A stretch of 64,000 nucleotides of DNA, taken from assembly GCA_016196225.1 (NCBI GenBank), contig JACPXZ010000031.1, positions 359 through 64,358 on the forward strand, written 5' to 3'. The notes under the pieces are model-generated. The model saw nothing but the letters and a program-made list of their open reading frames with translations, was not told the DNA's origin and did not search any database. This document shows positions 1,151 to 62,237 of the stretch, one piece after another (positions within the stretch are counted from its first letter, which is position 1; the number at the start of each line of letters is the position of its first letter). The position numbers and the translations under genes are program-made. The DNA comes from Candidatus Peregrinibacteria bacterium. GTDB lineage: Bacteria > Patescibacteriota > Gracilibacteria > Peribacterales > Peribacteraceae.

Positions 1151-2212
1151 TTATTTTGTAAGGAAATAGCGCAGTTCCCCGTCACCCCACAGAGTCTGGC
1201 CTTCGGGATCACCGGGGAAACCTTGGACAGATTGATCCCCGCTGTTCTTCACTTGAATTATTTTTGAGTATCCCTGCTTTGATACATGGCTTTCAAACCA
1301 GGAACGTTTAATGTGATTTTCTATAGGCACATACCAACTGTCGATAAAAACATAGCGCTTACTTGGCATACCGAGCAGATCGAGAACGCGCATTGTGTAC
1401 TCCATCGGAATCAGTTTTAATACTTCTCTCATACGTTTGCGGGAATGCCAAAAAATACCACCACCGCCGTAGCAATAGATAAACGCGCAGCCGCCTTTCC
1501 GCAAAAGCCGGTACAATTCGGCAAATCCCTTCTCAGGGTCTTTTGTATGATGGAGAACACCTTTGCAGAAGATAAAATCAAAACTCTCATCTTCGAAAGG
1601 AGCCTGTAACACATCTCCGTACAAAAATTTCGTCTTGGTGAGTCCTTTTTTTGCAGCCATTTTTTCCCCGATATCCAGCCCATCTTTGCCCAGATCCATA
1701 CCGATAACTTCCGCCGCACCGAGTGGTTCAAAACCGAGAGCAAAACGTCCTGAACCGCAGCCAAAATCAAGCACTCTTTTATCTTTAAACAGGCCAATAC
1801 TTTGGCCGTTACTTTCAAATATGCTTTTCAGTACTTCGCTTGATTCTTTGTTAATATACTGTGCGCTCAGTGTCGCCCACACTTTAGCGTGAACCTGCTT
1901 TGCCTCCTCCGAGTTCGAAATATTCTTGAAAGAGGCAACGTTGGGAAAATAACTACCCATTTCGGCAGTCAGCCGGAGCATTTGCACCGCGTGTTTTAGG
2001 CTTCCCAGAATATTATCGGTGTGACTTTGGGAATACCTTTTGGCGATAAACGGATCGTTTGGGTAGAGACTACGAAAGTAGTCGTGCATGAGTATGACGA
2101 CCATATATGGATGATCCTGCGCATTTTTTTTGGAAAGAACCACAAATTCATCCAGCAATGCCGCAATGACATTGATTTTGCTCGTACCGGAGGTGGACAT
2201 CGTGTTTGTCAT
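1151..2212 (-). CDS. class I SAM-dependent methyltransferase
   Basis: 353-aa ORF. Motif I is VLDFGCGSGRFA, followed by the acidic GMDLG loop and FCKGVLHH. Confidence 0.85.
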   Translation of the reverse strand: MTNTMSTSGTSKINVIAALLDEFVVLSKKNAQDHPYMVVILMHDYFRSLYPNDPFIAKRYSQSHTDNILGSLKHAVQMLRLTAEMGSYFPNVASFKNISNSEEAKQVHAKVWATLSAQYINKESSEVLKSIFESNGQSIGLFKDKRVLDFGCGSGRFALGFEPLGAAEVIGMDLGKDGLDIGEKMAAKKGLTKTKFLYGDVLQAPFEDESFDFIFCKGVLHHTKDPEKGFAELYRLLRKGGCAFIYCYGGGGIFWHSRKRMREVLKLIPMEYTMRVLDLLGMPSKRYVFIDSWYVPIENHIKRSWFESHVSKQGYSKIIQVKNSGDQSVQGFPGDPEGQTLWGDGELRYFLTK

Positions 2213-2242
2213 ACATCTAGCTGGGAATGCCCGGCAACAATA

Positions 2243-2252
2243 CCCCCCCCCC
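2243..2252. repeat. C10 homopolymer in a divergent promoter region
   Basis: Sequence is tacccccccccc gc tttttt aaaa. It lies between the divergent starts at 2212 (-) and 2324 (+). Confidence 0.9.
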
Positions 2253-2323
2253 GCTTTTTTAAAAGATCATTTTGGACTTCTTTTGACTTATTTTCGATAT
2301 TTAAAAAATGTACAGGATCTGCC

Positions 2324-3388
2324 ATGCTTTCCTCTGTGAAACATCTTTCCCTTTCTACAACACCAACCGAGGCACAATGGAATAGTGTTATCCGTTCGGC
2401 CTCAAATCCTCATTTTAATCAAACATGGGAGTGGGGGGAATTCTATGGAATGATGCCCGGTATTCACCCTATCCGTCTCCTTGCGATGGAAGGTGAAAAA
2501 CCAATCGCAATGCTCCAGGCATTTGAGTGGAAAAAAGGTCCCTTGAGTTTGGGGATCACGAGCGGAGGAGCAGGCGAAGGCGGAGGACCGGTGTTTGTAA
2601 AAACGATCGATCGAGACACGGAAATCCGTTGTTATCAGTCATTGATTGCAACATTATTCCGGATCTTCAAAGAGAAAAAATCGCTCCGTTTTCTCCTCTA
2701 TACCTTTCCTGGAGATGAGCTCCCTGCGCCCGATATCTCTGCAAAAACAGGAATAAAATCCACCCCAATCCTGCGCTTGCAGGAAAGCGAAGAACTTTTT
2801 TTGCAGAGTCTCGGCCATGAAGGACGTTGGGAACAAACCATTGGGATAAAACGAGGACTAAAAATAATGGAAGGAGGAAGGCATGACCTGCAGGAATATT
2901 GCGAAATTCAGCATGCGGTCGCTCTCGCCAAAAAACTCAACACCAAACATATGAACACCCTGCGGGAATGGGAGAAATTGTGGGATATATGTTCCAAAAA
3001 ACCGGGGACCATCCGGTTTTACATCGGGAAGAAAGACGAAAAAATGGTTGGTGCACTGATTGTTCTTTATTATGGAGATACTTTTTTCCTCCGGGGGGCG
3101 GTGTCCAATCCGGAAGGGAAAAAACTGCTAGTGAATAATGCGCTCTACGGTCGGGCCATCATCGATGGGATCCGGGACGGATATGTGTTTTGCAACATGA
3201 CCGGCGGGACCCGCGACACACACGATCCCATTTACGGCATCACGGCCTTCAAATTGAGTTTCCGCTCCGAACTTGTCGACTTTCGACGGTATTCGGCCAT
3301 AGGGAACCGGTACATAAACTATGCCGTGGAAAAAATACGTCGCCTCTTTGGCTACAATCTGTGGTTTCCCCTGCCGATCTATCCGTAA
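2324..3388 (+). CDS. FemAB-like (lipid II:glycine glycyltransferase-like) aminoacyl/peptidyl transferase
   Basis: ATG at 2324 chosen within ORF 2021-3388, because the upstream part overlaps the divergent gene. N-terminal HFNQTWEWGEFYG and C-terminal NNALYGRAIIDGIRDGY...GITAFKLSF match the FemAB family pattern. Confidence 0.7.
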   Translation: MLSSVKHLSLSTTPTEAQWNSVIRSASNPHFNQTWEWGEFYGMMPGIHPIRLLAMEGEKPIAMLQAFEWKKGPLSLGITSGGAGEGGGPVFVKTIDRDTEIRCYQSLIATLFRIFKEKKSLRFLLYTFPGDELPAPDISAKTGIKSTPILRLQESEELFLQSLGHEGRWEQTIGIKRGLKIMEGGRHDLQEYCEIQHAVALAKKLNTKHMNTLREWEKLWDICSKKPGTIRFYIGKKDEKMVGALIVLYYGDTFFLRGAVSNPEGKKLLVNNALYGRAIIDGIRDGYVFCNMTGGTRDTHDPIYGITAFKLSFRSELVDFRRYSAIGNRYINYAVEKIRRLFGYNLWFPLPIYP

Positions 3389-22002: not shown

Positions 22003-22034
22003 TTGTCATGCTGAAAGGAAGATTCATTCTATGC

Positions 22035-22094
22035 CCCTTCGAGGCTCCTCACTACGTTCGTCGCACCTCAGGGTGACATGTATGTGTATGCTGT
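22035..22094. repeat. 60-nt direct repeat, copy A
   Basis: cccttcgaggctcctcactacgttcgtcgcacctcagggtgacatgtatgtgtatgctgt is identical to 22198-22257. Confidence 0.9.
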
Positions 22095-22120
22095 TTTTAA
22101 AACATAAAACAAACAAAAAC

Positions 22121-22172
22121 ATGTCATGCTGAGGTGCGAGTGGAGCGATAGCGAAACGAGCCTCGAAGCATC
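22121..22172. repeat. inverted, diverged arm of the same repeat
   Basis: atgtcatgctgaggtgcgag...gagcctcgaagcatcat. The ends ATGTCA..CTGAGGTGCGA and GCCTCGAAG are complementary to TCGCACCTCAG..TGACAT and CTTCGAGGC of copy B. Confidence 0.75.
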
Positions 22173-22197
22173 ATAAAAGGAATATTCATTATCATGA

Positions 22198-22257
22198 CCC
22201 TTCGAGGCTCCTCACTACGTTCGTCGCACCTCAGGGTGACATGTATGTGTATGCTGT
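22198..22257. repeat. 60-nt direct repeat, copy B
   Basis: Identical to 22035-22094. Together with 22121-22172 it forms a long imperfect hairpin. Confidence 0.9.
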
Positions 22258-28816: not shown

Positions 28817-28851
28817 CCCCCTCTCCCTAGCCCTCCCCCCATGGGGGAGGG
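28817..28851. repeat. GC-rich hairpin repeat in a divergent intergenic region
   Basis: CCCTCCCCC cat GGGGGAGGG (28831-28851), preceded by cccctctccctag. Confidence 0.7.
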
Positions 28852-33880: not shown

Positions 33881-34153
33881 GCCACTTTTGTCCGGCAACA
33901 AAAGTGGCGCAAAAATGCCGGCGCGCCAGAGCTGACTCCGCCCGCCCTGCGGTCTCCTCACCAGACCCTCCAAGGATTCGGGTCTGGTTCGTCGACACGA
34001 AAAGCAGGGCTTCCCCTTCACCCCCTGTGGCGCGCCAACCCCCCCTCCATCTTTCCTCGCTCCCCTGATTGTGAGCTGTTTCAGCCTCTCCCAATAACCC
34101 CTCTCCCGGCGGGAGAGGGTTGGGTGAGGGGGTCAGATTGATATAAAATCTGA
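33881..34153. repeat. cluster of hairpins and nested inverted repeats in a 323-nt intergenic gap
   Basis: Hairpins: GCCACTTTTG/CAAAAGTGGC (33881-33908), CCCTCTCCC ggc GGGAGAGGG (34098-34118) and GTCAGATT/AATCTGAC (34131-34153). Nested pairs: GGCGCGCC (33920, 34029), GCCCTGC/GCAGGGC (33944, 34004) and ACCAGACCC/GGGTCTGGT (33960, 33980). Confidence 0.75.
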
Positions 34154-34159
34154 CAGAAC

Positions 34160-35188
34160 ATGCGAAATCTCTCTATCAATCTTTTACTGCTTATAACGAC
34201 AGTTATCCTCTTTTTTGGAGGGATCGAAGTCGCTTTGCGCGTGACTGGTCTCCAAACCACAAAACCAAACCCCCCGAAGATTTTTCAAAAAAGTCCGCAC
34301 CCAGACATCAGTTACGAACTGATCCCCAATATCAAAGAAAAGGCGTATCGCTCCATTATTTCCACGAATAGCTTAGGATTTCGCGGACCGGAGATCGATC
34401 CCCAAAAACCACTGATCGCGGTATTGGGGGATTCGATCACCTTTGGATATGGACTTGAAGACCACGAAACCATTCCTGCGCGCCTTCAAAACCTTCTCCC
34501 TGAATGGAGTATTCTGAATACCGCTGCGCCCGGATACGACCTCACGGTACAAACAGCAATCTATAGGGAAAAACTCAAATCCCTTGAGCCACACATACTC
34601 ATCCTTATTTTTCATCCAAACGACGTAGAAGGCATCGGTGTCGGGTTCCTCGATAATGATGGAATCATTCGTTCGCAAGGCTGGACTCCATCAGCCCCCC
34701 AATGTGACCCCATCGATCATGGATTACTCGGATACCTCCCCGGTCGATGTTTTCTGGATATTCACAGCACCTTCTACAAGGTAGTCAAAAAAGTCGTGAA
34801 TTCACGCTTTCGGCAGAAACAACTTATCCAGATGCAGGAAGAGTCTAAACAACATCCCGAAGAAGATGACATTACCGATGTCCAAATCAAGAGCTATGCC
34901 GACGACCTTGCACGGTTGCATCAAATCCTCCCGCAATCCCTCCCCCGCCTCTTTATCATCTGGCCCGATCGACGTCTCCATGCGATTGCCCGTCCCAAAA
35001 TCATCCAGATCGTAAAAAAATATGGATTTGAAGTCCTCGATCTCTATGACGTGTTCGGCAATGCCGCCCCTACCCTCTCGTGGGATACTGTCCACCCCAA
35101 CGCAGAGACTGCTAAAAGAGGGGCGGAGGAGATATGGAGATTTATTCAAGAACATAAACTACTACCCCTCCCGACGGGAGGGGACTAA
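34160..35188 (+). CDS. SGNH/GDSL-like hydrolase with N-terminal membrane anchor
   Basis: N-terminal TM helix, block I IAVLGDSITFGYG and block V WDTVHPNAETAKRGA. The last codons and the stop lie in repeat DNA. Confidence 0.75.
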   Translation: MRNLSINLLLLITTVILFFGGIEVALRVTGLQTTKPNPPKIFQKSPHPDISYELIPNIKEKAYRSIISTNSLGFRGPEIDPQKPLIAVLGDSITFGYGLEDHETIPARLQNLLPEWSILNTAAPGYDLTVQTAIYREKLKSLEPHILILIFHPNDVEGIGVGFLDNDGIIRSQGWTPSAPQCDPIDHGLLGYLPGRCFLDIHSTFYKVVKKVVNSRFRQKQLIQMQEESKQHPEEDDITDVQIKSYADDLARLHQILPQSLPRLFIIWPDRRLHAIARPKIIQIVKKYGFEVLDLYDVFGNAAPTLSWDTVHPNAETAKRGAEEIWRFIQEHKLLPLPTGGD

Positions 35189-35345
35189 GGGGAGAGGCAC
35201 CCCTCCCTGGAGGGAGGGGAAGGGCACATCGGTCGCGACCGATGTGCCAGGGGAGGGGGTAAGATGCATTCGTTTGTATTGCAGGCCAAACGGACCCCCC
35301 CCCTCCTTCATCCTCCCCCTCAAGGGGGAGGTGCCCCCGCCGGGA
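35165..35345. repeat. array of GC-rich hairpins plus a 26-nt perfect palindrome between convergent genes
   Basis: Hairpins: CCCCTCCC gac GGGAGGGG (35165-35183), CCCCTCCC tgga GGGAGGGG (35200-35219) and CCTCCCCC tcaa GGGGGAGG (35312-35331). GGCACATCGGTCGCGACCGATGTGCC (35223-35248) is a perfect palindrome. A C9 run lies at 35295-35303. Confidence 0.85.
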
Positions 35346-36513
35346 GAGGGAAATGAGACAAAATTCTTTTCATCCTCTCCTTCCAATCAAATCGCTTCAC
35401 GTGCTCTTTTCCTCTTTGCGCTTTCCTCTGTGCTTCTTCAGGGTGATTGAGAACCCATTCGATGGCATCCGCCATCGATCGTGGATCTCCTGCTTTACAA
35501 AAGGTCACCATGCTTTCATCGACGGTATCACGAATGGGAGGAATGTCCGAACAGACAACCGGTTTCCCTGCCGCTAAATATTCAAACAACTTCAAAGGTG
35601 ATGTATCCCGCATAAAATATGCATGTTTTTCCGCATCTCTAGGCGCCGGATAGACACAAACATCGCATGCGGCAATGGTATGAGAAACACGACTACTGAG
35701 GATCTGCCCCTCAAAACGAACATCATCTTGTGTTAATCCCAATTTTTGTGCTTGTCGTTTGTATTCACCAATATACGCATCGGGGCCTCCAACAATCCAC
35801 CCAAAAAATTTTGCTTCTCCGCGCTTAATAATCGCTAATGCTTGTACCAATTCCCGCATACCTTTTTCAATAATACTACGTGTCACAAGCGACCCCACAT
35901 ACCCAATAACCCATCGATTCGATGGAACATCGAACTCTGATTTGGAGACCTCTGTTTCGGGCAAACTTGCAAATCGATCCAGATCCACCCCATCGGGTTC
36001 TACCATTGTTTTTTTTGCATCAACTCCCCACCGAACTATTGCATCCCGCATCATGCTCGTTAAACAAATAATCTTTGTACATTGATTGCAATACTTTACA
36101 AACGTCTTGCGATTCATCCGTGGCAACGTATGCAGTTCCATATGTACTGATGTACCGGTACGTAGTAACTCTCCTACGACTTCCCATGAGCGACAATAGA
36201 AGAGATCTGCTTCATGCGTTTTTAAGAATGTTCGAAGAACCCTCCGGTACGACCACATCGAAATTGCAAATGCAAAATACCCGGGGATCCACCATTTTTG
36301 GAGCGCATCAAGACTGTTCAATCGTTTCACAGTGAAAGGAGCGGATACACCGTAATATCTACAGGGATCACCTTGTACTTGTGTCCAGACATTTGGATGA
36401 ACCAGAGTCACTTCGTGTCCCAACTGCCGCATTGCCGCACATACTTGTGCAATTTGATGCCCATGGGCTTTTTCGGTCGGGAACCGGGTATGCGTAACGT
36501 AGGTAATGCGCAT
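35320..36513 (-). CDS. GT4 family glycosyltransferase
   Basis: MRITYVTHTRFPTEKAHG start, and the C-terminal SPLKLFEYLAAGKPVV region. The stop codon lies in a hairpin loop. Confidence 0.9.
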   Translation of the reverse strand: MRITYVTHTRFPTEKAHGHQIAQVCAAMRQLGHEVTLVHPNVWTQVQGDPCRYYGVSAPFTVKRLNSLDALQKWWIPGYFAFAISMWSYRRVLRTFLKTHEADLFYCRSWEVVGELLRTGTSVHMELHTLPRMNRKTFVKYCNQCTKIICLTSMMRDAIVRWGVDAKKTMVEPDGVDLDRFASLPETEVSKSEFDVPSNRWVIGYVGSLVTRSIIEKGMRELVQALAIIKRGEAKFFGWIVGGPDAYIGEYKRQAQKLGLTQDDVRFEGQILSSRVSHTIAACDVCVYPAPRDAEKHAYFMRDTSPLKLFEYLAAGKPVVCSDIPPIRDTVDESMVTFCKAGDPRSMADAIEWVLNHPEEAQRKAQRGKEHVKRFDWKERMKRILSHFPLPAGAPPP

Positions 36514-43159: not shown

Positions 43160-44830
43160 TTAGAGCAAAACCTTCCACAAACTCCAACCTGCGTTCTCTG
43201 AGCGGAGCTTGTCCTGAGCGCTGTCGAAGGAGCCGGCAGGCCATCCCTCCTCCGTTTTAACCTTTTCGATGCGAACCTTCTTAAGTTTGGTTAGATTCCA
43301 CGCAGGATTGATCTTCTCATTCCAAAACAAATAATCCACTCCGTACTTCTTCAAAAAACCGTTCGGATCCTTATCCATGCGATTACATGCGTCTTTTACC
43401 ATCTGTACTTCCCTATCCCGTACATCTTGCGATCTTTGTCGCTGCTCAAAATAGAGTAAATGCGTGCTATCCTCAATGTACCGTTCGTTGGGAAGGATCG
43501 GCAAGAGCGTAAGACAATACCGCTCGGCAAATTCTTCGTCATTGATGAGAACATTTTTAAGATAAATGGAATACACCGTGTCATGATGCGTGTGCCCCGC
43601 AATGAAAAGTGACGTTGGTTGATCAGAAAGGATCCGCACTCGTGGCATTGCATCTAGAACCGGAAGGGCAGATGCAAGATGTTGCTCATAAAAATGATCG
43701 TCCTCCAGAATAAATTGTTTGATGATATGCCGACCGTCGTACGCGATCCCGGCCAAAAATACCAATGCGCATGCCCCGCTGAGGAGCGTCCACCGGTTGC
43801 GCACGGTAAGAGCAAGAACCAAACAGACGACCCCGCCAAAAATCAGTGAAATAAGGTAGTGTGAACTAAAAAACAAGATCACCCCGTGGATCACTTGTTG
43901 GTTAAGAACGATAAACGCCGCAAGGACGGTGATGATCGCAAGCCGATAGCGGTATAAGCGTTTCGGATACAGTACCCACGCCCCGAGGACTCCGCCCGCC
44001 ATTCCCAAAAAGAGCGTGCTCCGTATCCACGATTGAGGAGCGCGCGAAAAGAGAATGCCGCTCCGATACTGCGCCTCCGCGTAAAGCGGATGTCCGCTCA
44101 TAGCAACGAGCTCTGTAACAAACGGGAGCGCGATCAATCCGCCAATGAGTCCCATCAAAAGAATACTCCCGACCTCTTTGCGGTACCCATGGCGTATGGA
44201 TGTCATGAGTTCATAGAGCAGGAGCAAGCCCCACCATGCCCACACAAACGTCCAGCTCCAAAAATATACCCCGACGAGCAACCCCATGAGTACACCGCCG
44301 ATCAATCCCCACGTCACATGCCCCTGAACCCCTCGTATCACTCCCAAGAGTGCCGCAAGCTCAAGAAGAAAACTCGTTCGTTGATGAACCGGACGATTCA
44401 GATTGTATAGATTGAGTACCGTAAAAAGGATGGCCCCACCAAAAGCCTGCGACTGTGTAAAGCCACAGAGGAGTAAAAACCACCATATACCAACAAAGAT
44501 AATCGGCGGGATAACGGCGTCCATGAGTTGAAAAACGGTGGATGCGCGCCATCCGGTCCAACTAAAAAATATCCCCTCGATTTTTTCAATCAGCGCAGAT
44601 TGCATCGGGACCAGAGACGGATCTCCCACGACCGCCTCGGGAGCCATTTCCGGTCGACCGGAGAGCGCCTCCTGAACACGCGGAAGATAATTATATTCAT
44701 CAGAGCTTAAGTGCACGGGGATCCCCCGATAGCGGGTATCTGCCATGTGCATCCACTCCGGGAGTTGTATGAGAAGAATTAAACTCACACAACTAACGCC
44801 GATGATGGAGGACCAGCGAGTGGTAGCCAT
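43160..44830 (-). CDS. polytopic membrane protein, GT-C-like
   Basis: N-terminal anchor, loop motif SSDEYNY (DExxY-like), more than 10 hydrophobic spans and a soluble C-terminal domain. The last ~25 residues are encoded by repeat DNA. Confidence 0.6.
   Translation of the reverse strand: MATTRWSSIIGVSCVSLILLIQLPEWMHMADTRYRGIPVHLSSDEYNYLPRVQEALSGRPEMAPEAVVGDPSLVPMQSALIEKIEGIFFSWTGWRASTVFQLMDAVIPPIIFVGIWWFLLLCGFTQSQAFGGAILFTVLNLYNLNRPVHQRTSFLLELAALLGVIRGVQGHVTWGLIGGVLMGLLVGVYFWSWTFVWAWWGLLLLYELMTSIRHGYRKEVGSILLMGLIGGLIALPFVTELVAMSGHPLYAEAQYRSGILFSRAPQSWIRSTLFLGMAGGVLGAWVLYPKRLYRYRLAIITVLAAFIVLNQQVIHGVILFFSSHYLISLIFGGVVCLVLALTVRNRWTLLSGACALVFLAGIAYDGRHIIKQFILEDDHFYEQHLASALPVLDAMPRVRILSDQPTSLFIAGHTHHDTVYSIYLKNVLINDEEFAERYCLTLLPILPNERYIEDSTHLLYFEQRQRSQDVRDREVQMVKDACNRMDKDPNGFLKKYGVDYLFWNEKINPAWNLTKLKKVRIEKVKTEEGWPAGSFDSAQDKLRSENAGWSLWKVLL
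43191..43240. repeat. repeat DNA forming the C-terminal tail of the membrane protein
   Basis: gcgttctctgagcggagcttgtcctgagcgctgtcgaaggagccggc is read on the minus strand as GSFDSAQDKLRSENA. It is the same gtcctgagcg...cgaagga type as 49247-49280. Confidence 0.6.
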
Positions 44831-47700: not shown

Positions 47701-48719
47701 AGTTTTTTTAAAAAATCAGCGTACCTCTTCACTAACACTTCCCGATCAAATCTATCCAAAACTTTACATGCTTCTTGACCCAGACACCTCCGTAAACCCT
47801 CATCATCAAGGAGCATCTTTATCTTGCCTTTCAAATCAGACGCTTCTCCTGTAGTAAATATTCCATTCACTCCATCCTTGATCACATCGGGTGCAATACC
47901 AACCCGCGTGCTAATAACCGGCATCCCCAATGCCATTGCTTCCAAGAGAGCCCTTGGGCCACCTTCGCTCTTTGAGTTCATTACAAATATTTTCCCGGAC
48001 TGCATTGCTTTATACACCTCTTCTTTGGTCCCGATCCATACATCGGTCCCGATTGCGAGCAAGCTTGCATTGATATTGTTTGTTGCATTTCGCAATTCCT
48101 GTAAACCTTTATTTGGGACATCTCTCCCGCAGAACACAACGTCGTATTGTTTCTCTATTGATGGATCAGGTCCCAAGACCCCTCGATCAAGATAAAAAGA
48201 AGGGACCACTCCTATATTTTTTAATCCCCAATCATCCAACACCCTTTGTGTTTCTCTATTCACACACCGCACTGCTGTTGCGCTTTTCGTATCCCACTTT
48301 AGGAACACCCATGACATCCATCTCCCTATAAACTCCTGCCATGAAGCAGCGACGGGATATCCAACAATATGATGAATCTCCAAGACATACGGAATCTTTG
48401 TTTTTTTATGAAGCCACTTCGCCCCCAAGCCGTTATAAAACGGCGGATACTCATGGACCGTCATGACATCATGATGATATTCCGCAATAAGTTCCTTCCC
48501 CTTTTTAAGGATCCACCATGACTGATACCAGAGACCACGCGGAGAGGGATGAAAAAAAACTTTTCCAAATAAGTTTGTAGTTCCTAGTGAGTGATCAGTA
48601 ATCGGGGTAATGATGTCTATCCTCTCCCAATGTTTACAGAATTCCTCCAACGTGTAGTAGAACGCACTCTTCTTCCCCTGAAGAACCGACCTATCCCCGG
48701 AGATCATTAAGAGTTTCAT
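47697..48719 (-). CDS. GT4 family glycosyltransferase
   Basis: VVFCGRDVPNKG and SKSEGGPRALLEAMALGMPVIST. Confidence 0.85.
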   Translation of the reverse strand: MKLLMISGDRSVLQGKKSAFYYTLEEFCKHWERIDIITPITDHSLGTTNLFGKVFFHPSPRGLWYQSWWILKKGKELIAEYHHDVMTVHEYPPFYNGLGAKWLHKKTKIPYVLEIHHIVGYPVAASWQEFIGRWMSWVFLKWDTKSATAVRCVNRETQRVLDDWGLKNIGVVPSFYLDRGVLGPDPSIEKQYDVVFCGRDVPNKGLQELRNATNNINASLLAIGTDVWIGTKEEVYKAMQSGKIFVMNSKSEGGPRALLEAMALGMPVISTRVGIAPDVIKDGVNGIFTTGEASDLKGKIKMLLDDEGLRRCLGQEACKVLDRFDREVLVKRYADFLKKL

Positions 48720-49849
48720 AGAAGGTTTTTAAATAATGCCAAATGCTCCTCACACACTTCCCTCCATGTTCGCGTAGAAATATTTTTTATCGCGTCCTCT
48801 GCAAACTCCTCATACCCCTGTTCTACTTCGAAGAGTGCCTTCTGAATATCTTCTTTCGTTCGCAGTTTCCGCACAATCATCCCCTTTTTTAGATCCATAC
48901 TTAACCCCGTCTCTTCCGTCAGGAGTACCGGCAATCCGGCAGCTTGAGCCTCAAGCGCAGTATTGGGACTGATCTCCGTTGTCGATGGAATAATCAATAC
49001 ATCATGTTCTTTGAGTAATTTGTCCTTTTCTGCTCCATACACGGATCCCAATACTCTCACCCGGTCACTCGTCCCATCACGAATAACTTTTGACAGAACA
49101 TTCTTTTTTAATGGACCCTCTCCAACCAATGTCAGCATCATATGTGGCATTTGCAGGATCGCATCAAGAAGAGTGAACAGATTTTTAAAACCTACAAATC
49201 GTCCCATGAAGAGTAAACGGAATAGGCCCGGCTTCCTCGAAAATCGGAGCCTGTCCTGAGCGAAGCCGAAGGACCGTGGCAATCCCGTTGGGATTGCATT
49301 CTCAATAACACCGTGCTGTGGTAATGATTGATAAAACTCTTCATATATCTCTTCCTGAAATCTTGTCGAGAAGACAATCAAATCAAACCGATTGAGGAGC
49401 CAGTGTATAAAGCGGTGACTGATCCAGAGCGTCCAATGCAACGATTCATACCACTCATTCAAACTCATCATCCCTCCTCCTGCCGTATACCGCTCCCAAA
49501 AAAAGTCTCCGCCAAGACGCAGTACCTTTTTTGGTTTTTTTACGTGAGCAAGAACCATCGGCACCCCTGTACTTACCGACGAAAATGCATACACCACATC
49601 CGCATCCTTCGCGTGCTTCCGTAATGCCAATGCATACAAAAACCATCGGAGAATGGGAATACTCTTACTCACCCTCACAACATGCCATGCACATTCTTCA
49701 TTCTTCATTCGCTGTTCTACGTTCCGTCCGTACGTCACCACTATCACCTCTATGTTTTTCTTTACAAATTCCCATGCAAGATTCTGCACATACGTCGCCG
49801 GTCCCCCGATATCCGGCGGATAGATGCCTGTTGCAAGGACAATTTTCAT
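48716..49849 (-). CDS. GT4 family glycosyltransferase
   Basis: MKIVLATGIYPPDIGGPATY, LLFMGRFVGFKN, EISPNTALEAQAAGLPVL. Confidence 0.85.
   Translation of the reverse strand: MKIVLATGIYPPDIGGPATYVQNLAWEFVKKNIEVIVVTYGRNVEQRMKNEECAWHVVRVSKSIPILRWFLYALALRKHAKDADVVYAFSSVSTGVPMVLAHVKKPKKVLRLGGDFFWERYTAGGGMMSLNEWYESLHWTLWISHRFIHWLLNRFDLIVFSTRFQEEIYEEFYQSLPQHGVIENAIPTGLPRSFGFAQDRLRFSRKPGLFRLLFMGRFVGFKNLFTLLDAILQMPHMMLTLVGEGPLKKNVLSKVIRDGTSDRVRVLGSVYGAEKDKLLKEHDVLIIPSTTEISPNTALEAQAAGLPVLLTEETGLSMDLKKGMIVRKLRTKEDIQKALFEVEQGYEEFAEDAIKNISTRTWREVCEEHLALFKNLL
49247..49280. repeat. hairpin repeat in frame within the GT4 gene
   Basis: ggagcctGTCCTgagcgaagccgaAGGACcgtgg is read on the minus strand as SFGFAQDRLRFS. 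Confidence 0.65.
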
Positions 49850-53616: not shown

Positions 53617-54414
53617 ATGAAAGGCGTCCTCATCTGCGGCGGGTCCGGAACCCGGCTAAAGCCCCTGACCGATATCACGAACAAAAGCCTCCTCCCGGTC
53701 TACGATAAGCCCCTCCTCCTTTATCCTCTCCAAACCCTTCTCGATGCGGGCATCCGCAAGATCATGGTGGTGTCAGGTCCCGAGCACGTTGATCAGATGG
53801 CAGGATTCCTCGGGAGCGGTACGCGGTTTGGGTGTGCATTTTCTTACCGCGTACAAGATGATCCTAAAGGTATCGCCCAAGCGCTCGGTATGGCCGAAGA
53901 GTTTGCGGATGGTGACAATGTCTGTGCACTCCTCGGAGATAATATTTACCTTGATCCGATGAGGCAGGCCATCGCTTCTTTTGAGAGCGGCGGTCATGTC
54001 TTCCTAAAAGAAGTATCGGATCCCGAACGCTTCGGCGTGGCGCAAGTACAGGGAACACGCATTACTTCTATCGCAGAAAAGCCTGCTCATCCCACAAGCA
54101 ATCTTGCGATCACCGGTTGCTACATATACGACCATCGTTGTTTTGAGGTTATTCGCCATATGCAACCTTCACCCCGTGGAGAACTCGAGATTACCGATGT
54201 CAGTCGCTGGTATATGGAACAGAAAGAACTCTCCTACACCATCCTCAAGGATGAGTGGATCGATGCGGGGACATTCGAGAGTCTCCACCAAGCTGCTGTC
54301 ATTATTCGTTCTCGTAAACTTGCGCATACCGTTCAGCAATTTCTCCCCAATCAAACCGTTCCGCAAAAAGCCTCCCCGCCTGTGCAAGTTGCTCCCGCTC
54401 TTCATGGTCGGTAA
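53617..54414 (+). CDS. rfbA: glucose-1-phosphate thymidylyltransferase-like sugar nucleotidyltransferase (short form)
   Basis: MKGVLICGGSGTRLKPLT, LGDNIY, and EITDV near the C-terminus. ATG 53617 is preferred to 53596. The C-terminal tail overlaps the convergent GT4. Confidence 0.85.
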   Translation: MKGVLICGGSGTRLKPLTDITNKSLLPVYDKPLLLYPLQTLLDAGIRKIMVVSGPEHVDQMAGFLGSGTRFGCAFSYRVQDDPKGIAQALGMAEEFADGDNVCALLGDNIYLDPMRQAIASFESGGHVFLKEVSDPERFGVAQVQGTRITSIAEKPAHPTSNLAITGCYIYDHRCFEVIRHMQPSPRGELEITDVSRWYMEQKELSYTILKDEWIDAGTFESLHQAAVIIRSRKLAHTVQQFLPNQTVPQKASPPVQVAPALHGR

Positions 54415-55357
54415 GAAGTATCTCTATCGCTGCTGAAGCCACATCGGGGTCGTCCGGCGGGACGAGAATTCCCGTCTTTTCATCCTGCACAATATCGGGG
54501 ATCCCCCCGACCCGCGTCGCAACAACCCCGCACTCCGCAGCCATCGCTTCCAAAAATACATTCCCCAACGCCTCACTTCGGGAGAGTCCGCAGAAGATTT
54601 GAGCCGCAGCAAATTCCTTATAGACATCGGGTACTGAGACCCACCCGACAAATCGCACGCGGCCCTCTTTAATAAATCGCTCTGCGCGTGCTTCGAGCGG
54701 TGCACGAAGCGAGCCATCCCCTACAATCCGTAAATGCGCCCGTGGATGCCGCTGTATGACGATCTCAAATGCATTCAGCAAAGTATCGACCCCCTTCATC
54801 TCTTCGAGTCGGCCGACAAAAAGAATACGACCTTCCACCTTTTGCGTCTGCAAGACGGTTGACCGAATGGTTTTGAGAGAGATTCCATTCGGGATCAGAT
54901 GCACATCCTCTCGTCCATATTCTTTTGCAATATTAACCAATGCAGAACTGATCGCGGTCACGGTATCGGGCGACCGAACGATCATCTGTTTCAAAAAACT
55001 TCGATTGGTTGTCTGCAACGTCAGGATTCTCTGAGAGCCCGAACTGGTCCATTTACAAAAATAAAGTGCAAGTCCAGCAAATGTTTCGAGAACGGCGTGC
55101 ACGATATCCGGCTTGAGTTTCCACACCACGAATGGTGCAAGGAACGGATAGAGCCATTTATCGAATGAAAACCCTAAACCAATACGAATAACGCAAACTT
55201 TCCCCCCTCCCTGCCCTCCCCCCCCTCTCCTCATCCTTGCCGTCACAATCGTAATGTCATAGCGACCCTCCAGCCGTATCGCCACTTCCTCCGCACATGC
55301 CTCCGCCCCACTCCGAAATGGGGAAAGGAATGCCGAGAGAATCACTACTTTTTTCAT
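54302..55357 (-). CDS. GT4 family glycosyltransferase
   Basis: FVGRLEEMKG and SRSEALGNVFLEAMAAECGVVAT. Confidence 0.85.
   Translation of the reverse strand: MKKVVILSAFLSPFRSGAEACAEEVAIRLEGRYDITIVTARMRRGGGGQGGGKVCVIRIGLGFSFDKWLYPFLAPFVVWKLKPDIVHAVLETFAGLALYFCKWTSSGSQRILTLQTTNRSFLKQMIVRSPDTVTAISSALVNIAKEYGREDVHLIPNGISLKTIRSTVLQTQKVEGRILFVGRLEEMKGVDTLLNAFEIVIQRHPRAHLRIVGDGSLRAPLEARAERFIKEGRVRFVGWVSVPDVYKEFAAAQIFCGLSRSEALGNVFLEAMAAECGVVATRVGGIPDIVQDEKTGILVPPDDPDVASAAIEILLTDHEEREQLAQAGRLFAERFDWGEIAERYAQVYENE
55200..55233. repeat. C/G-rich repeat in frame within the GT4 gene (contains a G8 run on the coding strand)
   Basis: ttcccccctccctgccctcccccccctctcc is read on the minus strand as RRGGGGQGGGK. 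The C8 run is at 55218-55225. Confidence 0.7.
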
Positions 55358-57539: not shown

Positions 57540-60407
57540 CTAAGGAATAAGAACAAAAGCAACGCCCCGTCCCGGATCGTTGATAACCGGCTGCAACCCC
57601 GCTTCGGGTGAGTTAAGAAAGTCTACGAACATTTGCACCTTTTTATGGAGCGTACCGTCGGTGCGTTCAATCGTTGCCGTGTTGGTGTCAAAAATAATAC
57701 TGTTAAACCCGAGCGCCTTGAGGCGGGCAATCGTGATTTTTGGATCCCGTTCCTGATGCAGACAATTGAACTGATCCAATTGATGATCGGAAATACCGAT
57801 CACTTCGAAGTTCTTCGGGATAAAATACGGTATAAATGTCCCCACACGATAAAGGTACGGGCGATCCGGTATTTGATCGTGCCGCTGGGTCACGTATCGC
57901 GCGATGGTCGCATAATGCGGTATGGTGCGTTCTTCCATTGCATGAGCGGACACTTTTCCAAATGGAAACTCGAGCAAATTGCGCTGTTGTTCGTACTGCC
58001 AAAAACGATTCGCAAAGCTGACAAACAGAGAACAGGTGATCAGCATCCCGACGATGACGCGGCTCCAAATGTCCGGCGCCCGCCGCGTCAAAAACTCCAG
58101 ACCGATACAGAGTCCCAAAAACATTCCGATCCCGTACCATAGGATACCATTGGCAAGGAACATCCATTGCAACACCATAAACAGCGTCCCCAAACCCAAC
58201 CACCGGATCCACGCATCATTTTTCCACCAGAAAAAGGGCAACAGAAACAAGAGCGGGAACAGAAGCAACGCCGGCATCGTCGTGACGTAGTACCCCGCCG
58301 AATCCAGATTCATCACGGTACGCCATGGGAGTGTCAGGTAATGTCCCCATCCTTTCTCGAATCCCCAGTACCGATCGAGTTCTTCTTTGTGACCCGTCTC
58401 CTGACACGCAGGATCATTGGGATCAACCGCCAGATCCGGAGGCAGCGTCATCTCACGAGGTGCCGGATTGTCAACGGTCACCCGGAAGAAAAGAAGTGGA
58501 GAGAGTTTGTTGGGCGCATTAAGGATAGGTGCAGGAATAATCGGGAATTTCTTACCGGTTTGAACATTGTTATGGAAAAGCCACGGATATACGGCGAGTA
58601 CAAAACCTCCGACAAATAAACCTATCAACTGGACTATAGGCATGATGTTCTTGCGCCGCTTCCAATATGCGAAAAACAAAAAAACTATCCCGGCAATGGC
58701 ACATACTGCTGCAAATCCTTTTTTGGACACGTCCAAATTCTCTCCAAAAATCCGTTCGGTAATGCCCTTAAGATATAATTGACCCATATATGCAAACACG
58801 GCAAAAGAAAAGAAAACCGATCCGACAAATGCCAACCAATGGAGTTCCACTGCAAGAAGAATCGCTCCCAGCGCCATCAGAACCATAATTGCTGTCGGCT
58901 TCATCCCAAAACTCAAACCCCCAAAGATCCCCGCCAATAACACCAACTGCCATGAACGTCGAGAGCCTTCCTTAGCGCTGTCAAAAAGAAACGCAAAGAG
59001 CATCAACGCGCTCAATGCGCCCATCAAAAATACGGCATTGTCGATCTTCATATCCGCGAACGAAAAGTGACCGACGAGAGGCAAACTGTAATAAAGAAGT
59101 GCGGATAATAAACCCGCTCCTGACCTGTCCACCGTAGCTCCGTTAAGCGGAGCGTAGGAGGATCCCATGAAAAAGTGTCCAAAAACTAAAACCGTGAGTG
59201 TCGCAAAAAGACCGGCCATCCAGTTAATGACCATTGCTGCCGTCGAACCAAACACGCTCTCGTATCCAAACAAAATATAACTCAGTGAGGTCAAATACTC
59301 CCACTGGAACGGCGACATTGAATGAATAAAGTGACCGTAGCTCACCATCAATCGCGGTCGATTGAGGTAACTCCCAAGATCGTCCCATCCGATCGGGAAG
59401 GGACGAATAACATTAAGAAAATTCAACGCAAGGTAACTGAAGAGCAGCCATCCGATCAGCATATTCATGCTGGACCACTGCAGTGTCGAATCCCATCGCC
59501 ATTTTTTTAACGCCCCCAACCAATACAAACTATGACGGTACGCCGCAATCGGAAGAGCAAACAGGAACGTCCACGCAATCGGCGCCGACAGTAGTGATAC
59601 CGGCGTACCTTGCGATACCACCGCCAAAAACCATATCACCGCGATCCACCCCCCGACGCCAAGTCCAAGACTCGCCATCCCTTCAAGAGGGGGGGGTAAT
59701 AATGGCATGCGCAGGGAAGAGAGTAACCATCTCCCCATCACCAGAAGATCAAATATCAGAAAAATCGCAAAAAGAATCTGCGGCACGACGATCATCCAAA
59801 AACTTTTTTGTATGCACAACTGCTTATATTGAAAAACGCGCGCACCATGATTGGTTTTTCCAAGAAGTTTAAGACAACCGCGGTTCTCCAACGAAACCAT
59901 ATTATCCTGAAGCGCCTTGAGTCCGCTTTCCGTCACATTTGTGTACACTTGAGGCAGCGGTTCGAACAACCAATTAAACGGGTGATTGCCACTGTCCGTA
60001 AAACTCAATGTGGTGAACAGCAGCCATAGACTCAAAACAAATGCCGCGAGCGCTTTCCACGGAGCAATGGTTAAAACAAACTGCGTCCGGCCGGTCTCAA
60101 ACCACCGCCATGCCAAAAATATCACATATAAACCAATGCAAATAATCCCGTACCACAAAAACGGCGCCGCGCGGCTGATGGTATACGTAAGGAAAGGGAG
60201 TAAGCCATACAACCCACGACAGAGGTACCGATCTCCCTCCCCGCACGCGTTCATAACCGTATCCTTCGCTCCTCCATCCAGCAGCACACCGATATGCACC
60301 GGTACGCCGATGTAATAAAGCAGCGTATACCCCCCCCAAAAAAGGAGTCCGAGGAAAAACCCTGCGCTCATAAGTTGAATCAGTCGATGACGTTGAACTG
60401 TTTCCAT
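57540..60407 (-). CDS. very large polytopic membrane protein (GT-C-like, inferred)
   Basis: About 956 aa with more than 20 hydrophobic spans and a soluble C-terminal ~130 aa. The start is ATG 60407 or 60431, because the longest ORF (60479) overlaps divergent sufS. Confidence 0.7.
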   Translation of the reverse strand: METVQRHRLIQLMSAGFFLGLLFWGGYTLLYYIGVPVHIGVLLDGGAKDTVMNACGEGDRYLCRGLYGLLPFLTYTISRAAPFLWYGIICIGLYVIFLAWRWFETGRTQFVLTIAPWKALAAFVLSLWLLFTTLSFTDSGNHPFNWLFEPLPQVYTNVTESGLKALQDNMVSLENRGCLKLLGKTNHGARVFQYKQLCIQKSFWMIVVPQILFAIFLIFDLLVMGRWLLSSLRMPLLPPPLEGMASLGLGVGGWIAVIWFLAVVSQGTPVSLLSAPIAWTFLFALPIAAYRHSLYWLGALKKWRWDSTLQWSSMNMLIGWLLFSYLALNFLNVIRPFPIGWDDLGSYLNRPRLMVSYGHFIHSMSPFQWEYLTSLSYILFGYESVFGSTAAMVINWMAGLFATLTVLVFGHFFMGSSYAPLNGATVDRSGAGLLSALLYYSLPLVGHFSFADMKIDNAVFLMGALSALMLFAFLFDSAKEGSRRSWQLVLLAGIFGGLSFGMKPTAIMVLMALGAILLAVELHWLAFVGSVFFSFAVFAYMGQLYLKGITERIFGENLDVSKKGFAAVCAIAGIVFLFFAYWKRRKNIMPIVQLIGLFVGGFVLAVYPWLFHNNVQTGKKFPIIPAPILNAPNKLSPLLFFRVTVDNPAPREMTLPPDLAVDPNDPACQETGHKEELDRYWGFEKGWGHYLTLPWRTVMNLDSAGYYVTTMPALLLFPLLFLLPFFWWKNDAWIRWLGLGTLFMVLQWMFLANGILWYGIGMFLGLCIGLEFLTRRAPDIWSRVIVGMLITCSLFVSFANRFWQYEQQRNLLEFPFGKVSAHAMEERTIPHYATIARYVTQRHDQIPDRPYLYRVGTFIPYFIPKNFEVIGISDHQLDQFNCLHQERDPKITIARLKALGFNSIIFDTNTATIERTDGTLHKKVQMFVDFLNSPEAGLQPVINDPGRGVAFVLIP

Positions 60408-60438
60408 TGCGGCGCAAGCATAGCGTACCATACCGCCG

Positions 60439-61704
60439 ATGACACTCGATATTTCGGCAATTCGCAGGCAATTCCCCATCCTTGATCAGGAACTCATATA
60501 CCTGGACAGCGCCGCCACCGCGCAGAAGCCGCAGATCGTCATAGACGCCCTCAAAGAATTTTACGCAAAAAAAAACGCGAACGTCCACCGGGGGATGCAT
60601 GGTCTTGCCGAGCAGGCGACCACTGCATACGAAAACGCACGAACATCGGTGCAAAAATTTATCAACGCGGCCTCCCCGGAGGAAATCATCTTCACCAAAA
60701 GCTGCACCGAAAGTATCAACCTCGTTGCCAACTCTTACTCCTCCCGACGGGAGGGGGTTAGGGGGAGGGGGTCTGTGGTTCTTTCGCTTCTTGAACATCA
60801 TTCCAATATCGTTCCATGGATGATGTGCGGGGCACATCTCCATTGGATTAATATCGATGAGTATGGAAATACACGATTGGAACAACTCGATACATATTTA
60901 AAACAAGAAAACATAGAGCTCGTCGCCATCACCGGCCAAAGTAATGTTCTCGGGACCCGCCCACCACTTAAAGAGATCATCCAAAAAGCTCATGCCGCCG
61001 GAGCATATGTCCTCGTCGACGCAGCCCAACTTGTCGCGCATCACCAAGTAAACGTGCAAGAACTTGATTGCGACTTCCTCGCATTCTCCGCTCACAAACT
61101 CTACGGACCGACCGGAATCGGCGTCCTCTACGGCAAACGAGAGCTTCTCGAAAAAATGCCGCCGTTCATCGGCGGCGGCATGATGATCAAAGAAGCCACA
61201 CAAACCGGATTCACTCCCGCCGATATTCCCCAAAAGTTTGAAGGCGGCACTCCCCCCATTGCACAGGCCATCGGTCTCGCCGCCGCTCTCGAGTGGTTGG
61301 AGCAATTCGCATGGAAAGATATCGAAGAGCATGAACACGCTCTCCTTAAACACGCTGAACATATTCTCAAAAATATCGATGGCCTGAAAATTCTCCCAGC
61401 ATGTCATCCTGAGCCCGACGAAGGACGACATGCTCAAGATGTCATGGTTCGTCGAGCTCACCATGACATGGAGCGTTCCGGCTGCCTCTCTTTCGTTCTC
61501 GATAAAGTCCACCCCCATGACCTCACGGATATCCTCGGAGAGCAAGGCATTTGCCTCCGAGCCGGCCACCATTGTGCCATGCCCCTCCATAAACGTCTTA
61601 ACATCCCCGCAAGCACCCGTGTATCTTTTGGAATTTATAACACCATCCAAGAGATTGATATTCTCGCCGACGCGATTCAACATGCTCAAAAAATACTGCA
61701 ATAA
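60439..61704 (+). CDS. sufS: cysteine desulfurase, SufS type
   Basis: IRRQFPIL, YLDSAATAQKP, NVHRG, SAHKLYGPTG (PLP Lys), RAGHHCAMPL (catalytic Cys). Confidence 0.9.
   Translation: MTLDISAIRRQFPILDQELIYLDSAATAQKPQIVIDALKEFYAKKNANVHRGMHGLAEQATTAYENARTSVQKFINAASPEEIIFTKSCTESINLVANSYSSRREGVRGRGSVVLSLLEHHSNIVPWMMCGAHLHWINIDEYGNTRLEQLDTYLKQENIELVAITGQSNVLGTRPPLKEIIQKAHAAGAYVLVDAAQLVAHHQVNVQELDCDFLAFSAHKLYGPTGIGVLYGKRELLEKMPPFIGGGMMIKEATQTGFTPADIPQKFEGGTPPIAQAIGLAAALEWLEQFAWKDIEEHEHALLKHAEHILKNIDGLKILPACHPEPDEGRHAQDVMVRRAHHDMERSGCLSFVLDKVHPHDLTDILGEQGICLRAGHHCAMPLHKRLNIPASTRVSFGIYNTIQEIDILADAIQHAQKILQ
60739..60772. repeat. GC-rich hairpin repeat in frame within sufS
   Basis: tCCTCCCgacGGGAGGgggttagggggagggggt shares about 17 nt with the intergenic hairpin at 35165-35183. 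Read as SSRREGVRGRGS. Confidence 0.75.
61400..61469. repeat. two tandem hairpin repeats in frame within sufS
   Basis: CATGTCATCCT/AGGACGACATG (61400-61432) and ATGTCATGGT/ACCATGACAT (61439-61469). Read as CHPEPDEGRHAQDVMVRRAHHDM. Confidence 0.8.
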
Positions 61705-61707
61705 CAT

Positions 61708-62184
61708 ATGGATCTGTACGCCGAAAACATCCTCGATCACTATCGCCATCCACGACATAAACTCCCTCTCCCCAAAGAGGCACCTCCCCCGACGGGGGAG
61801 CCCGCCTGCCGGACGGGCAGGGACCAAGGAGGGGGAGTAGTCATTCATCATGAATCCAATCCCGCCTGCGGAGACGAACTTACCATCCGCTTCGGTATCA
61901 AAGATGATCATATTCACAATCCCTCATGGGATGGCACCGGCTGCGCCATCAGTCAGGCTGCGATGTCCATGCTCGCAGAAGAATTTGAGAATATCTCAAT
62001 CGACTCTGCCGCTGCTCTCACACCTAAGCAAATCTTTGATCTCCTCGGCGTTCCCATCAGCCCCCGCCGCCTCAAATGCGCCCTCCTTGGGCTCCATGCT
62101 CTTAAAAATGCCCTGCATATTCATTACGGAGAACCGTTGCAAGTATGGACTCAAACAGTATCTGGAGCCGTCGACGAGATTTGA
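61708..62184 (+). CDS. sufU: SufU/IscU-like Fe-S cluster scaffold/sulfur acceptor
   Basis: ILDHYRHPRHK, NPACGDEL, GTGCAIS, RLKCALLG (three conserved Cys). Confidence 0.8.
   Translation: MDLYAENILDHYRHPRHKLPLPKEAPPPTGEPACRTGRDQGGGVVIHHESNPACGDELTIRFGIKDDHIHNPSWDGTGCAISQAAMSMLAEEFENISIDSAAALTPKQIFDLLGVPISPRRLKCALLGLHALKNALHIHYGEPLQVWTQTVSGAVDEI
61762..61838. repeat. GC-rich hairpin repeats in frame within sufU
   Basis: CTCCCCC gac GGGGGAG (61784-61800) and CCTGCC ggacg GGCAGG (61805-61821). Read as LPLPKEAPPPTGEPACRTGRDQGGG. Confidence 0.75.
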
Positions 62185-62237
62185 ACTCGTGACCCCCTCC
62201 TTACCATGGAGGTGCTCTACCACTGAGCTACGACGGC
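62163..62237 (-). tRNA. tRNA-Thr (anticodon GGU), CCA encoded
   Basis: Hand-folded cloverleaf. Acceptor GCCGTCG/CGACGGC, D arm GCTC-AGTGGTA-GAGC, anticodon arm CCTCC-ATGGTAA-GGAGG and T arm ACGAG-TTCAAAT-CTCGT, then T-CCA. Length 75 nt. Confidence 0.9.

Follow-up and report, generated by a model that had tools for sequence, protein, structure and literature searches.

In-frame copies of dispersed palindromic repeats probably form two loops of the cysteine desulfurase SufS in a Candidatus Peregrinibacteria genome

The cysteine desulfurase gene sufS of a Candidatus Peregrinibacteria bacterium (60439–61704, plus strand, 421 aa) carries two blocks of hairpin-forming repeat DNA within its reading frame. 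The gene lies in a 64,000-nucleotide stretch of contig JACPXZ010000031.1 (assembly GCA_016196225.1, positions 359 to 64,358; referred to as the window, whose own coordinates are used below). Block (i) (approximately 60730–60772, plus strand) spans N98–S112 of the product (NSYSSRREGVRGRGS), and block (ii) (61400–61470, plus strand) spans the 23 codons from C322 to M344 (CHPEPDEGRHAQDVMVRRAHHDM). Most probably (we put this at roughly 0.85), both blocks are copies of small dispersed palindromic repeats, akin to repetitive extragenic palindromes (REPs), their paired forms (REPINs) and Rickettsia palindromic elements (RPEs), that populate the genomes of Peregrinibacteria and other members of the candidate phyla radiation (CPR). 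The original prediction, made from the sequence of the window, was that dispersed palindromic repeat DNA sits in frame in a functional-looking sufS in the manner of RPEs, and orthologues, copies in other genomes, stem covariation and a structure model all support it.

Block (ii) consists of two hairpins (61400–61431 and 61439–61470) in opposite orientation; each is an inverted copy of the other, and the arms, 32 nt long, show 81% complementarity (inverted repeat I1). The two halves differ by a CC-to-GG change in the 5′ arm that is matched by a GG-to-CC change in the 3′ arm, and the lowest-energy RNA fold of the block is a single hairpin of 71 nt (–35.6 kcal/mol, z –4.76). The block had initially been described as two tandem hairpins; the arms given for them are indeed present, but the inverted 32-nt arms and the single long hairpin of the lowest-energy fold rule out a tandem arrangement, and the block is better described as an inverted, REPIN-like dimer. 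Each 32-nt unit has the form TGTCAT-SS-TGAGCNCGACGAA-S′S′-ATGACA, in which TGAGCNCGACGAA is a fixed apical segment of 13 nt, and we refer to repeats of this type as family B. The family B core (YCCTGAG..CGAAGGR) was found in the window at 22035 and 22198 (both between genes), at 43212, at 49254 and in the two sufS units. Moreover, the 14-nt arm of block (ii), CATGTCAYNCTGAG, recurs at 22067 (minus strand), 22120 (plus strand, where a related arm had been predicted at 22121–22135) and 22230 (minus strand), adding up to 6 matches in the window against 0.43 expected. The further claim that block (ii) is the same repeat DNA as that filling intergenic gaps of the window thus holds for this arm, but not for the whole hairpin, whose full-length relatives stem from related genomes.

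The distribution of family B was examined with the pattern TGTCATSSTGAGCNCGACGAA in one genome per species, the genome of the window itself not being among the loci returned. The pattern was present in 109 genome stretches, of which 60 stem from about 20 Peribacteria or Peregrinibacteria metagenome-assembled genomes (MAGs), with one Peribacteria MAG alone contributing 17 loci; other carriers included Roizmanbacteria, Saccharibacteria, Chitinophagaceae, Kapaibacterium, Chloroflexota and Acidobacteriota, among others. In 123 of 136 family B copies the stem dinucleotide following the apical segment was complementary to SS (GG with CC in 84 copies, CC with GG in 31 and GC with GC in 8, leaving about 13 non-complementary copies), and this clear covariation indicates that the hairpin is maintained. 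A nucleotide profile built from 133 foreign copies matched both sufS units in an nhmmer search (E 3.6e-11 for the top match, and 1.5e-9). Oppositely oriented family B pairs with a spacing of 41–45 nt were seen at five further loci (L010, L057, L065, L102 and L103), and a double hairpin of about 70 nt with the architecture of block (ii) and an identical core (23/23) occurs outside sufS in the related locus L001 (14082–14150), between a small unannotated open reading frame (ORF) and a peptidase gene.

As anticipated, copies were found at both coding and non-coding sites. Most of the family B copies lie in short open stretches, that is, between genes or at gene ends, and in-frame copies were found in the genes for LepA, CarB, an HhH-GPD glycosylase, two class I aminoacyl-tRNA synthetases, PolX, dihydroorotase and RecG. 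In an ADP-forming acetyl-CoA synthetase the repeat yields CHPELDEGRHATNVMVRRAHHDT, a peptide that is nearly identical to that of sufS and uses the same frame. Across the hosts, no fewer than four frames or orientations of family B are used (CHPEPDE, VMVSSTNHD, VMVRRAHHD and LRRAQDDT), and direct reading of the hairpin showed four of its six frames to be free of stop codons. On visual inspection, several apparent in-ORF matches (L005, L026 and L028) were judged to be Arg/Gly-rich frames within DNA that is GC-rich or laden with repeats, and they were set aside.

Two further in-frame copies of the family B core (repeat D15) lie on the minus strand of the window. At 49245–49273 the core TCCTGAGCGAAGCCGAAGGA is read as SFGFAQDRLRFS in a family 4 glycosyltransferase (GT4; 48716–49849, minus strand), where it lies in the linker between two Rossmann-like domains: the Pfam domains stop at residue 187 and resume at residue 208. 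At 43203–43231 the core is read as FDSAQDKLRSE, some 15 codons before the stop codon of an ORF for a 556-aa membrane protein (43160–44830, minus strand), and may represent a repeat-derived C-terminal extension.

Block (i) belongs to a second type of repeat, family A, in which a C-run/G-run hairpin (CCCTCCC-nnn-GGGAGGG) is followed by a G-rich tail. In block (i) these parts are the hairpin CCTCCC-gac-GGGAGG (60740–60754) and the tail GGGAGGGGGTTAGGGGGAGGGGG (60749–60771). The 15-mer CCTCCCGACGGGAGG occurs exactly, on the plus strand, only at 35167 and 60740, and with up to two mismatches it gave 4 matches on both strands of the window versus 0.13 expected by chance. The closest relative of block (i) lies at 35157–35197: the alignment with the copy at 35165 (blastn-short) showed 17/17 identity (E 1.6e-4), and the likeness over the full repeat amounts to 34/41 nt (83%). 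A third copy of this 41-nt repeat (D1) is located at 34092. The exact 17-nt match is the one originally reported to an intergenic hairpin at 35165–35183; the identity stands, but that copy is not strictly intergenic, because it overlaps the last codons of the ORF at 34160–35188. In total, family A copies were found in the window at 28831, 34099, 35165, 35200 and 35312, in sufS (60740) and in the adjacent sufU (61784).

The residues added by the two blocks were delimited by comparison with Bacillus subtilis SufS and with the 120 nearest SufS homologues. Relative to the B. subtilis protein, block (ii) contributes 22 extra residues (query 318–344 versus chain 325–329), in agreement with the roughly 20 predicted. 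Block (i) adds only 2, so that it constitutes a loop replacement rather than a pure insertion, again as predicted. The closest SufS proteins were P0002 (locus L001, with an identical protein in three independent assemblies) and P0003 (L004), both from syntenic loci. At the block (i) site, the L001 protein, which is about 73–75% identical to that of the window, has an ordinary loop (IHPDDHIILS) and no repeat. The L004 gene, in turn, carries a homologous family A element whose hairpin is kept via two double (compensatory) pair changes. A family A element (TCCCTCCCCCTTGGGGAGAGGATGGGGGTGAGAGG) is also present at this site in P0017, the nearest relatives of which, up to 86% identical, are without it, indicating that the element was inserted independently there.

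The window, L001 and L004 have the outer arms of the block (ii) site in common (C[A/G]TGTCAY..TGAG and CTCA..ATGACA[T/C]G), but their interiors differ: L001 has an insert of 36 nt that forms a single hairpin (z –5.8), the insert of the window measures 69 nt, and that of L004, at 90 nt, includes a nested unit of the FGGAQDRLRRS type. The same FGxAQDRLR type of peptide was noted in the GT4 linker described above. Among the 120 homologues the commonest loop class at this site has 8 aa (37 homologues), and more than half have longer loops, of up to 34 aa, with inserts of at least four unrelated repeat types. The loops of L115 and L117 contain near-perfect long hairpins unrelated to block (ii) (–47.1 and –44.8 kcal/mol, z –7.1 and –5.2, respectively). 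These hairpins, in the sufS genes at 2001–3290 of L115 and 2001–3299 of L117, are built of ACGGGTT/AACCCGT units (read as YGLRVAGSRNSKPVTRN) and GGGGCG..CGCCCC arms; the insert in L116 (sufS at 1853–3070) is a tandem ACGAATT heptamer read as TNYELRITNYE. The variety of these inserts marks the block (ii) loop as a hot spot colonised repeatedly by different repeat types. The alignment of orthologues called for at the outset has thus yielded a close relative without block (i) and a hypervariable loop at block (ii).

These comparisons also bear on the question whether the blocks could be artefacts of assembly or binning, that is, chimeric joins induced by repeats inside sufS. Repeats are a classic cause of misassembly, and the SufS protein of the window, which matches an NCBI protein of Candidatus Peregrinibacteria at 100% identity, is known from a single contig of 86.7 kb. 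However, the reading frame is kept on both sides of the blocks, both sites hold homologous elements in relatives that were assembled independently (L004, and L001 to L003, which stem from three different samples), and the gene order around sufS is conserved, which together make an artefact scarcely credible.

Hairpin 'byp' elements in some yeast mitochondria provide a precedent for segments that lie within a coding region and are not translated. The blocks, being compact and stable hairpins within coding regions, might likewise be skipped by the ribosome or excised from the transcript. We consider this very improbable, given that all inserts examined, in sufS (36, 69 and 90 nt) as well as in other genes, are a multiple of three and stop-free in the frame of their host, that neither take-off/landing codon pairs nor splice-like signals were observed, and that no Rfam family matched them. 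More specifically, Rfam searches at both gathering and permissive thresholds returned only tRNAs and chance-level hairpin matches, and none for family A or B.

Apart from the two blocks, sufS is an intact type II (SufS-family) cysteine desulfurase gene that looks functional. Its product exceeds the TIGR01979 cutoff (495.1 versus 475.1 bits), aligns end to end with solved SufS structures from the Protein Data Bank (E ~1e-107) and is encoded directly next to sufU. The lysine that binds pyridoxal 5′-phosphate (K220) and the catalytic cysteine (C379, in RAGHHC379) both occupy invariant columns of the homologue alignment, consistent with the earlier view that both catalytic motifs are intact. An AlphaFold model computed with 27 homologues as input was confident overall (mean predicted local distance difference test score, pLDDT, 82.7; predicted template modelling score, pTM, 0.84), and Foldseek recovered the SufS fold (template modelling scores of 0.86–0.90 to E. 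coli and B. subtilis SufS). Five stretches of the model have a pLDDT below 50, and these include residues 105–108 of block (i) and residues 323–327 and 336–343 of block (ii), suggesting that the repeat-encoded residues form unstructured loops on an intact fold, in line with the surface loops that had been suspected. According to this model, the sites of both blocks would be structurally permissive. The predicted peptides across the insert junctions are ILPACHPEPDEGR, AHHDMER and EGVRGR.

These data might in turn indicate how repeats come to be part of such proteins. Copies of the hairpin repeats would arise genome-wide by transposition-like copying, most of them between genes; a few, of a length that is a multiple of three and with a stop-free frame, would end up in interdomain linkers or in surface loops that tolerate them. 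Such copies could then escape removal by selection, being neutral or at least tolerated, and their translation would add residues to the loop. Alternatively, the repeats might spread from other copies through templated repair or gene conversion.

Several observations weigh against the blocks being inserted copies of mobile repeats. The hairpin of block (i) is no more stable than shuffled sequence (RNA fold, z 0.26); since C-run/G-run composition pairs in any order, its status as a repeat is founded on sequence identity and not on energy. Block (i) is, in addition, a nearly length-neutral swap that removes a conserved GD turn motif, which is hard to obtain by simple insertion. For block (ii), a profile search of the 64-kb window found no full-length members of its subfamily other than the two units in sufS. 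Sampling based on ORFs is, furthermore, blind to copies that break the frame. Finally, neither a transposase nor a target-site duplication nor an excision footprint came to light (no search of complete Peribacteria genomes was made), so that the case for mobility draws on the distribution of the copies.

The repair route would be compatible with the nearly length-neutral swap at block (i) and with the differing interiors between common arms at block (ii). In this route the hairpins would owe both their spread and their uniformity to templated repair, to gene conversion or to the switching of templates at quasi-palindromes rather than to a transposase, with loops that were already partial palindromes being converted to the repeat consensus. 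Both sites would fit such a process: block (i) is a replacement of near-equal length without a clean insertion, the three related sufS genes have the same outer arms around interiors of 36, 69 and 90 nt, and no target-site duplication is visible. REPs of the CGTC type, as Di Nocera et al. (PMC3733652) point out, also lack a dedicated transposase. This route would, however, need pre-existing homology at many unrelated sites, such as those in LepA, CarB and RecG, and the independent arrival of family A in P0017, in the absence of the element from its closest relatives, looks like a de novo insertion. We therefore regard repair or conversion as an unlikely, though far from negligible, origin, and favour the insertion of dispersed repeat copies.

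A different question is whether the inserts are maintained as selected features, either of the protein (for example as contact loops between SufS and SufU) or of the mRNA or DNA (with hairpins or G-quadruplexes tuning suf expression). The predicted four-run G3+ pattern on the coding strand of block (i) was recovered at 60749–60771 (regular expression with G3+ runs and loops of 1–7 nt). The first of its G-runs also belongs to the hairpin, and the G-quadruplex of block (i) is a sequence pattern only. From shuffled sequence 1.05 matches to this expression would be expected in the window; 4 were present, a number that the richest shuffle reached as well. Family A copies account for three of the four (those at 28817, 34111 and 60749), and the orthologous copy in L004 matches too. 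Selection on the inserts would agree with this retention of the four G-runs in L004, with the presence of such segments in both sufS and sufU of all three related genomes, and with the compensatory changes that keep the hairpins paired between orthologous copies. On the other hand, this same DNA also occurs in intergenic positions and, read in several frames, within unrelated enzymes; orthologues do not conserve the peptide at the two sites, and the loops are short in many homologues. The family A copy of P0017 lacks four G3+ runs, the inserts have no confident structure in the model, and the covariation is a property of the whole family rather than of sufS. A selected role is accordingly improbable in our view, and the tolerated presence of repeat copies remains the preferred explanation.

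Among the known repeat systems, RPEs are the obvious reference, being found in frame in genes of Rickettsia (Ogata et al. 2000, 2002, as summarised in PMC10969869). Like RPEs, the repeats described here are dispersed palindromes in a reduced genome, a fraction of which lie in frame in unrelated housekeeping genes, at permissive sites of proteins that are apparently functional: two sites in sufS, one in sufU and the GT4 linker in the window, and LepA, CarB, RecG and others in related genomes. Unlike RPEs, which measure some 100–150 bp and encode one conserved peptide, the CPR elements have 32–71 nt, stem from a different phylum and are read in several frames, with block (i) replacing a loop. 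Because of this length and host phylum, membership in the RPE-1 to RPE-10 families is unlikely, and the resemblance is one of function.

A further parallel is offered by GTAG and CGTC REPs, whose intragenic copies, including dimers encoding 20–30 aa, have been described in several phyla (Di Nocera et al. 2013, PMC3733652). Both these REPs and the REPINs are imperfect palindromes of 20–40 nt, often present as inverted pairs able to fold into a larger hairpin. The CPR repeats match this in their 32-nt unit, in their many dispersed copies per genome (17 loci in one MAG) and in inverted dimers that form a longer hairpin. As with GTAG and CGTC REPs, most copies are intergenic with a minority in genes, the stems vary with the structure being kept, and the 23 residues of block (ii) fall within the coding length given for the dimers. 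Those REPs are characterised by an unpaired tag at one end (GTAG or CGTC, or a TGTC/CCTC variant), a stem of 8–9 bp that begins with AT, a loop of 4–5 nt and a CCA-like tail. By inspection, the CPR repeats seem to lack a GTAG or CGTC tag in unpaired form: TGTC-AT stands at their 5′ end, though base-paired, and the conserved 13-nt apical segment TGAGCNCGACGAA of family B takes the place of the 4–5-nt loop. No REP-associated tyrosine transposase (RAYT) was identified in the 64 kb, complete Peribacteria genomes not having been searched, and the CPR falls outside the phyla surveyed in PMC3733652.

[quoted passage not shown] Like these, the repeats are small, non-autonomous and able to create translational fusions or insertions, and they show terminal inverted symmetry, with the outer arms of block (ii) acting as terminal inverted repeats. 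They differ in being far smaller, in having no related insertion sequence element known, and in showing no target-site duplication. A MITE with such a duplication was dismissed, as inspection revealed no flanking direct duplication in the window or in L001, be it in sufS or at the copy that lies elsewhere. Protein-coding genes that contain hairpin-forming inverted repeats as part of their reading frame are also described in PMC6649704, where long perfect coding palindromes occur in Nematomorpha mitochondrial genes; the CPR elements differ from these in being a short dispersed family common to intergenic and genic sites. Our searches of the open-access literature brought up no account of palindromic, hairpin, REP or MITE repeats of this kind in CPR, Patescibacteria or Peregrinibacteria, which agrees with the original suggestion that in-frame palindromic elements are undescribed for such genomes. 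The novelty is nevertheless smaller than was then assumed, since in-frame REPs are already documented beyond Rickettsia (PMC3733652).

If both blocks are repeat copies, the translation of repeat DNA in essential genes would not be restricted to Rickettsia, but would extend to a second, independent group with reduced genomes, the streamlined CPR. The main interest then lies in the extent of the phenomenon in these genomes and in the recurrent colonisation of the same SufS loops. More tentatively, and less probably than not in our view, hairpin repeats whose translation is routine may have colonised CPR such as Peregrinibacteria on a large scale; were this so, much of the variation in loops and in length among CPR housekeeping proteins would go back to such repeats. 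The occurrence of TGAGCNCGACGAA with covarying stems in Bacteroidota, Chloroflexota and Acidobacteriota might, in addition, point to a common trans-acting recognition or mobilisation factor, or to exchange between phyla. The covarying stem with its conserved apical segment provides a handle for finding whatever factor recognises or mobilises the repeats. For the annotation and phylogenomics of CPR MAGs, repeat-derived loops could inflate protein lengths, introduce spurious low-complexity motifs (AQDRLR, VRRAHHD, PLPxGEGxGVRG), and mislead alignments and structure prediction. The insertions would also mark naturally permissive sites in SufS and SufU that may be of use in protein engineering.

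The sufU gene (61708–62184, plus strand), directly 3′ of sufS, encodes a NifU_N/SufU-like sulfur acceptor. Its Pfam NifU_N match (E 2.4e-20) places 134 residues on 117 profile positions, and TIGR01994 aligns to the product from residue 45 onward only. Family A-type hairpins lie in frame at 61764–61838 (plus strand, inverted repeat I8), just upstream of the first conserved cysteine motif (NPACGD), and are read as PLPKEAPPPTGEPACRTGRDQGGG. They comprise CTCCCCCG-a-CGGGGGAG (61784–61800), CCTGCC..GGCAGG (approximately 61805–61820) and purine runs. Compared with the window, the L004 orthologue has 13 aa fewer in this segment, and that of L001 differs there. The C-terminus of SufU also differs in relatives, and the last 22 nt of the gene overlap a tRNA-Thr(GGT) gene on the opposite strand (62163–62237).

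The other family A copies of the window are intergenic or lie at gene ends. At 34092–34132 (plus strand), an intergenic copy of repeat D1 combines a hairpin (34099–34119) with a tail that has the G-quadruplex pattern (34111–34132). Another intergenic copy, at 28817–28851, has the hairpin CCCTCCCCC-cat-GGGGGAGGG and matches the G-quadruplex expression on the minus strand (28817–28840). The cluster at 35157–35350, which includes the closest relative of block (i), lies between convergent genes and contains four hairpins (35165, 35200, 35223 and 35312) within about 170 nt. Both flanking ORFs end inside the repeats (LLPLPTGGD* and PLPAGAPPP*), so that the repeats may supply their stop codons or C-terminal tails.

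The intergenic family B-related repeats at 22031–22257 carry the CATGTCAYNCTGAG arm together with the core CCCTGAGG..CCTCGAAGGG. They form a composite block in which two direct repeats of 64 nt (98% identical, 163 nt apart) flank an inverted partial copy. Outside the CPR, the 5.1-Mb Bacteroidota genome of the Chitinophagaceae MAG CAWIHW01 (L050, 5942–7732; also L047, L112, L014 and L088) contains the 21-nt family B hairpin motif in dense clusters on the same strand, with seven copies in 1.8 kb, indicating that family B is not confined to CPR.

The sufS–sufU pair does not adjoin sufBCD (region 57540–60479 of the window; loci L001, L004, L115 and L117). In relatives it is conserved beside a divergently transcribed gene for a membrane protein of about 930–980 aa (PMT_2-like in L115 and L117), and the predicted start regions of sufS and this divergent gene overlap by 41 nt (60439–60479) in the window. 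The membrane protein encoded at 43160–44830 had no Pfam match. Lastly, a second GT4 gene (54302–55357, minus strand) matches the G-quadruplex expression on its coding strand in a purine-run loop (RRGGGGQGGGK, 55202–55225), and its L001 orthologue (81% identical) has at exactly the same place a different loop that is 11 residues longer (SLPKRSFLPPHPNPPPKWEG).

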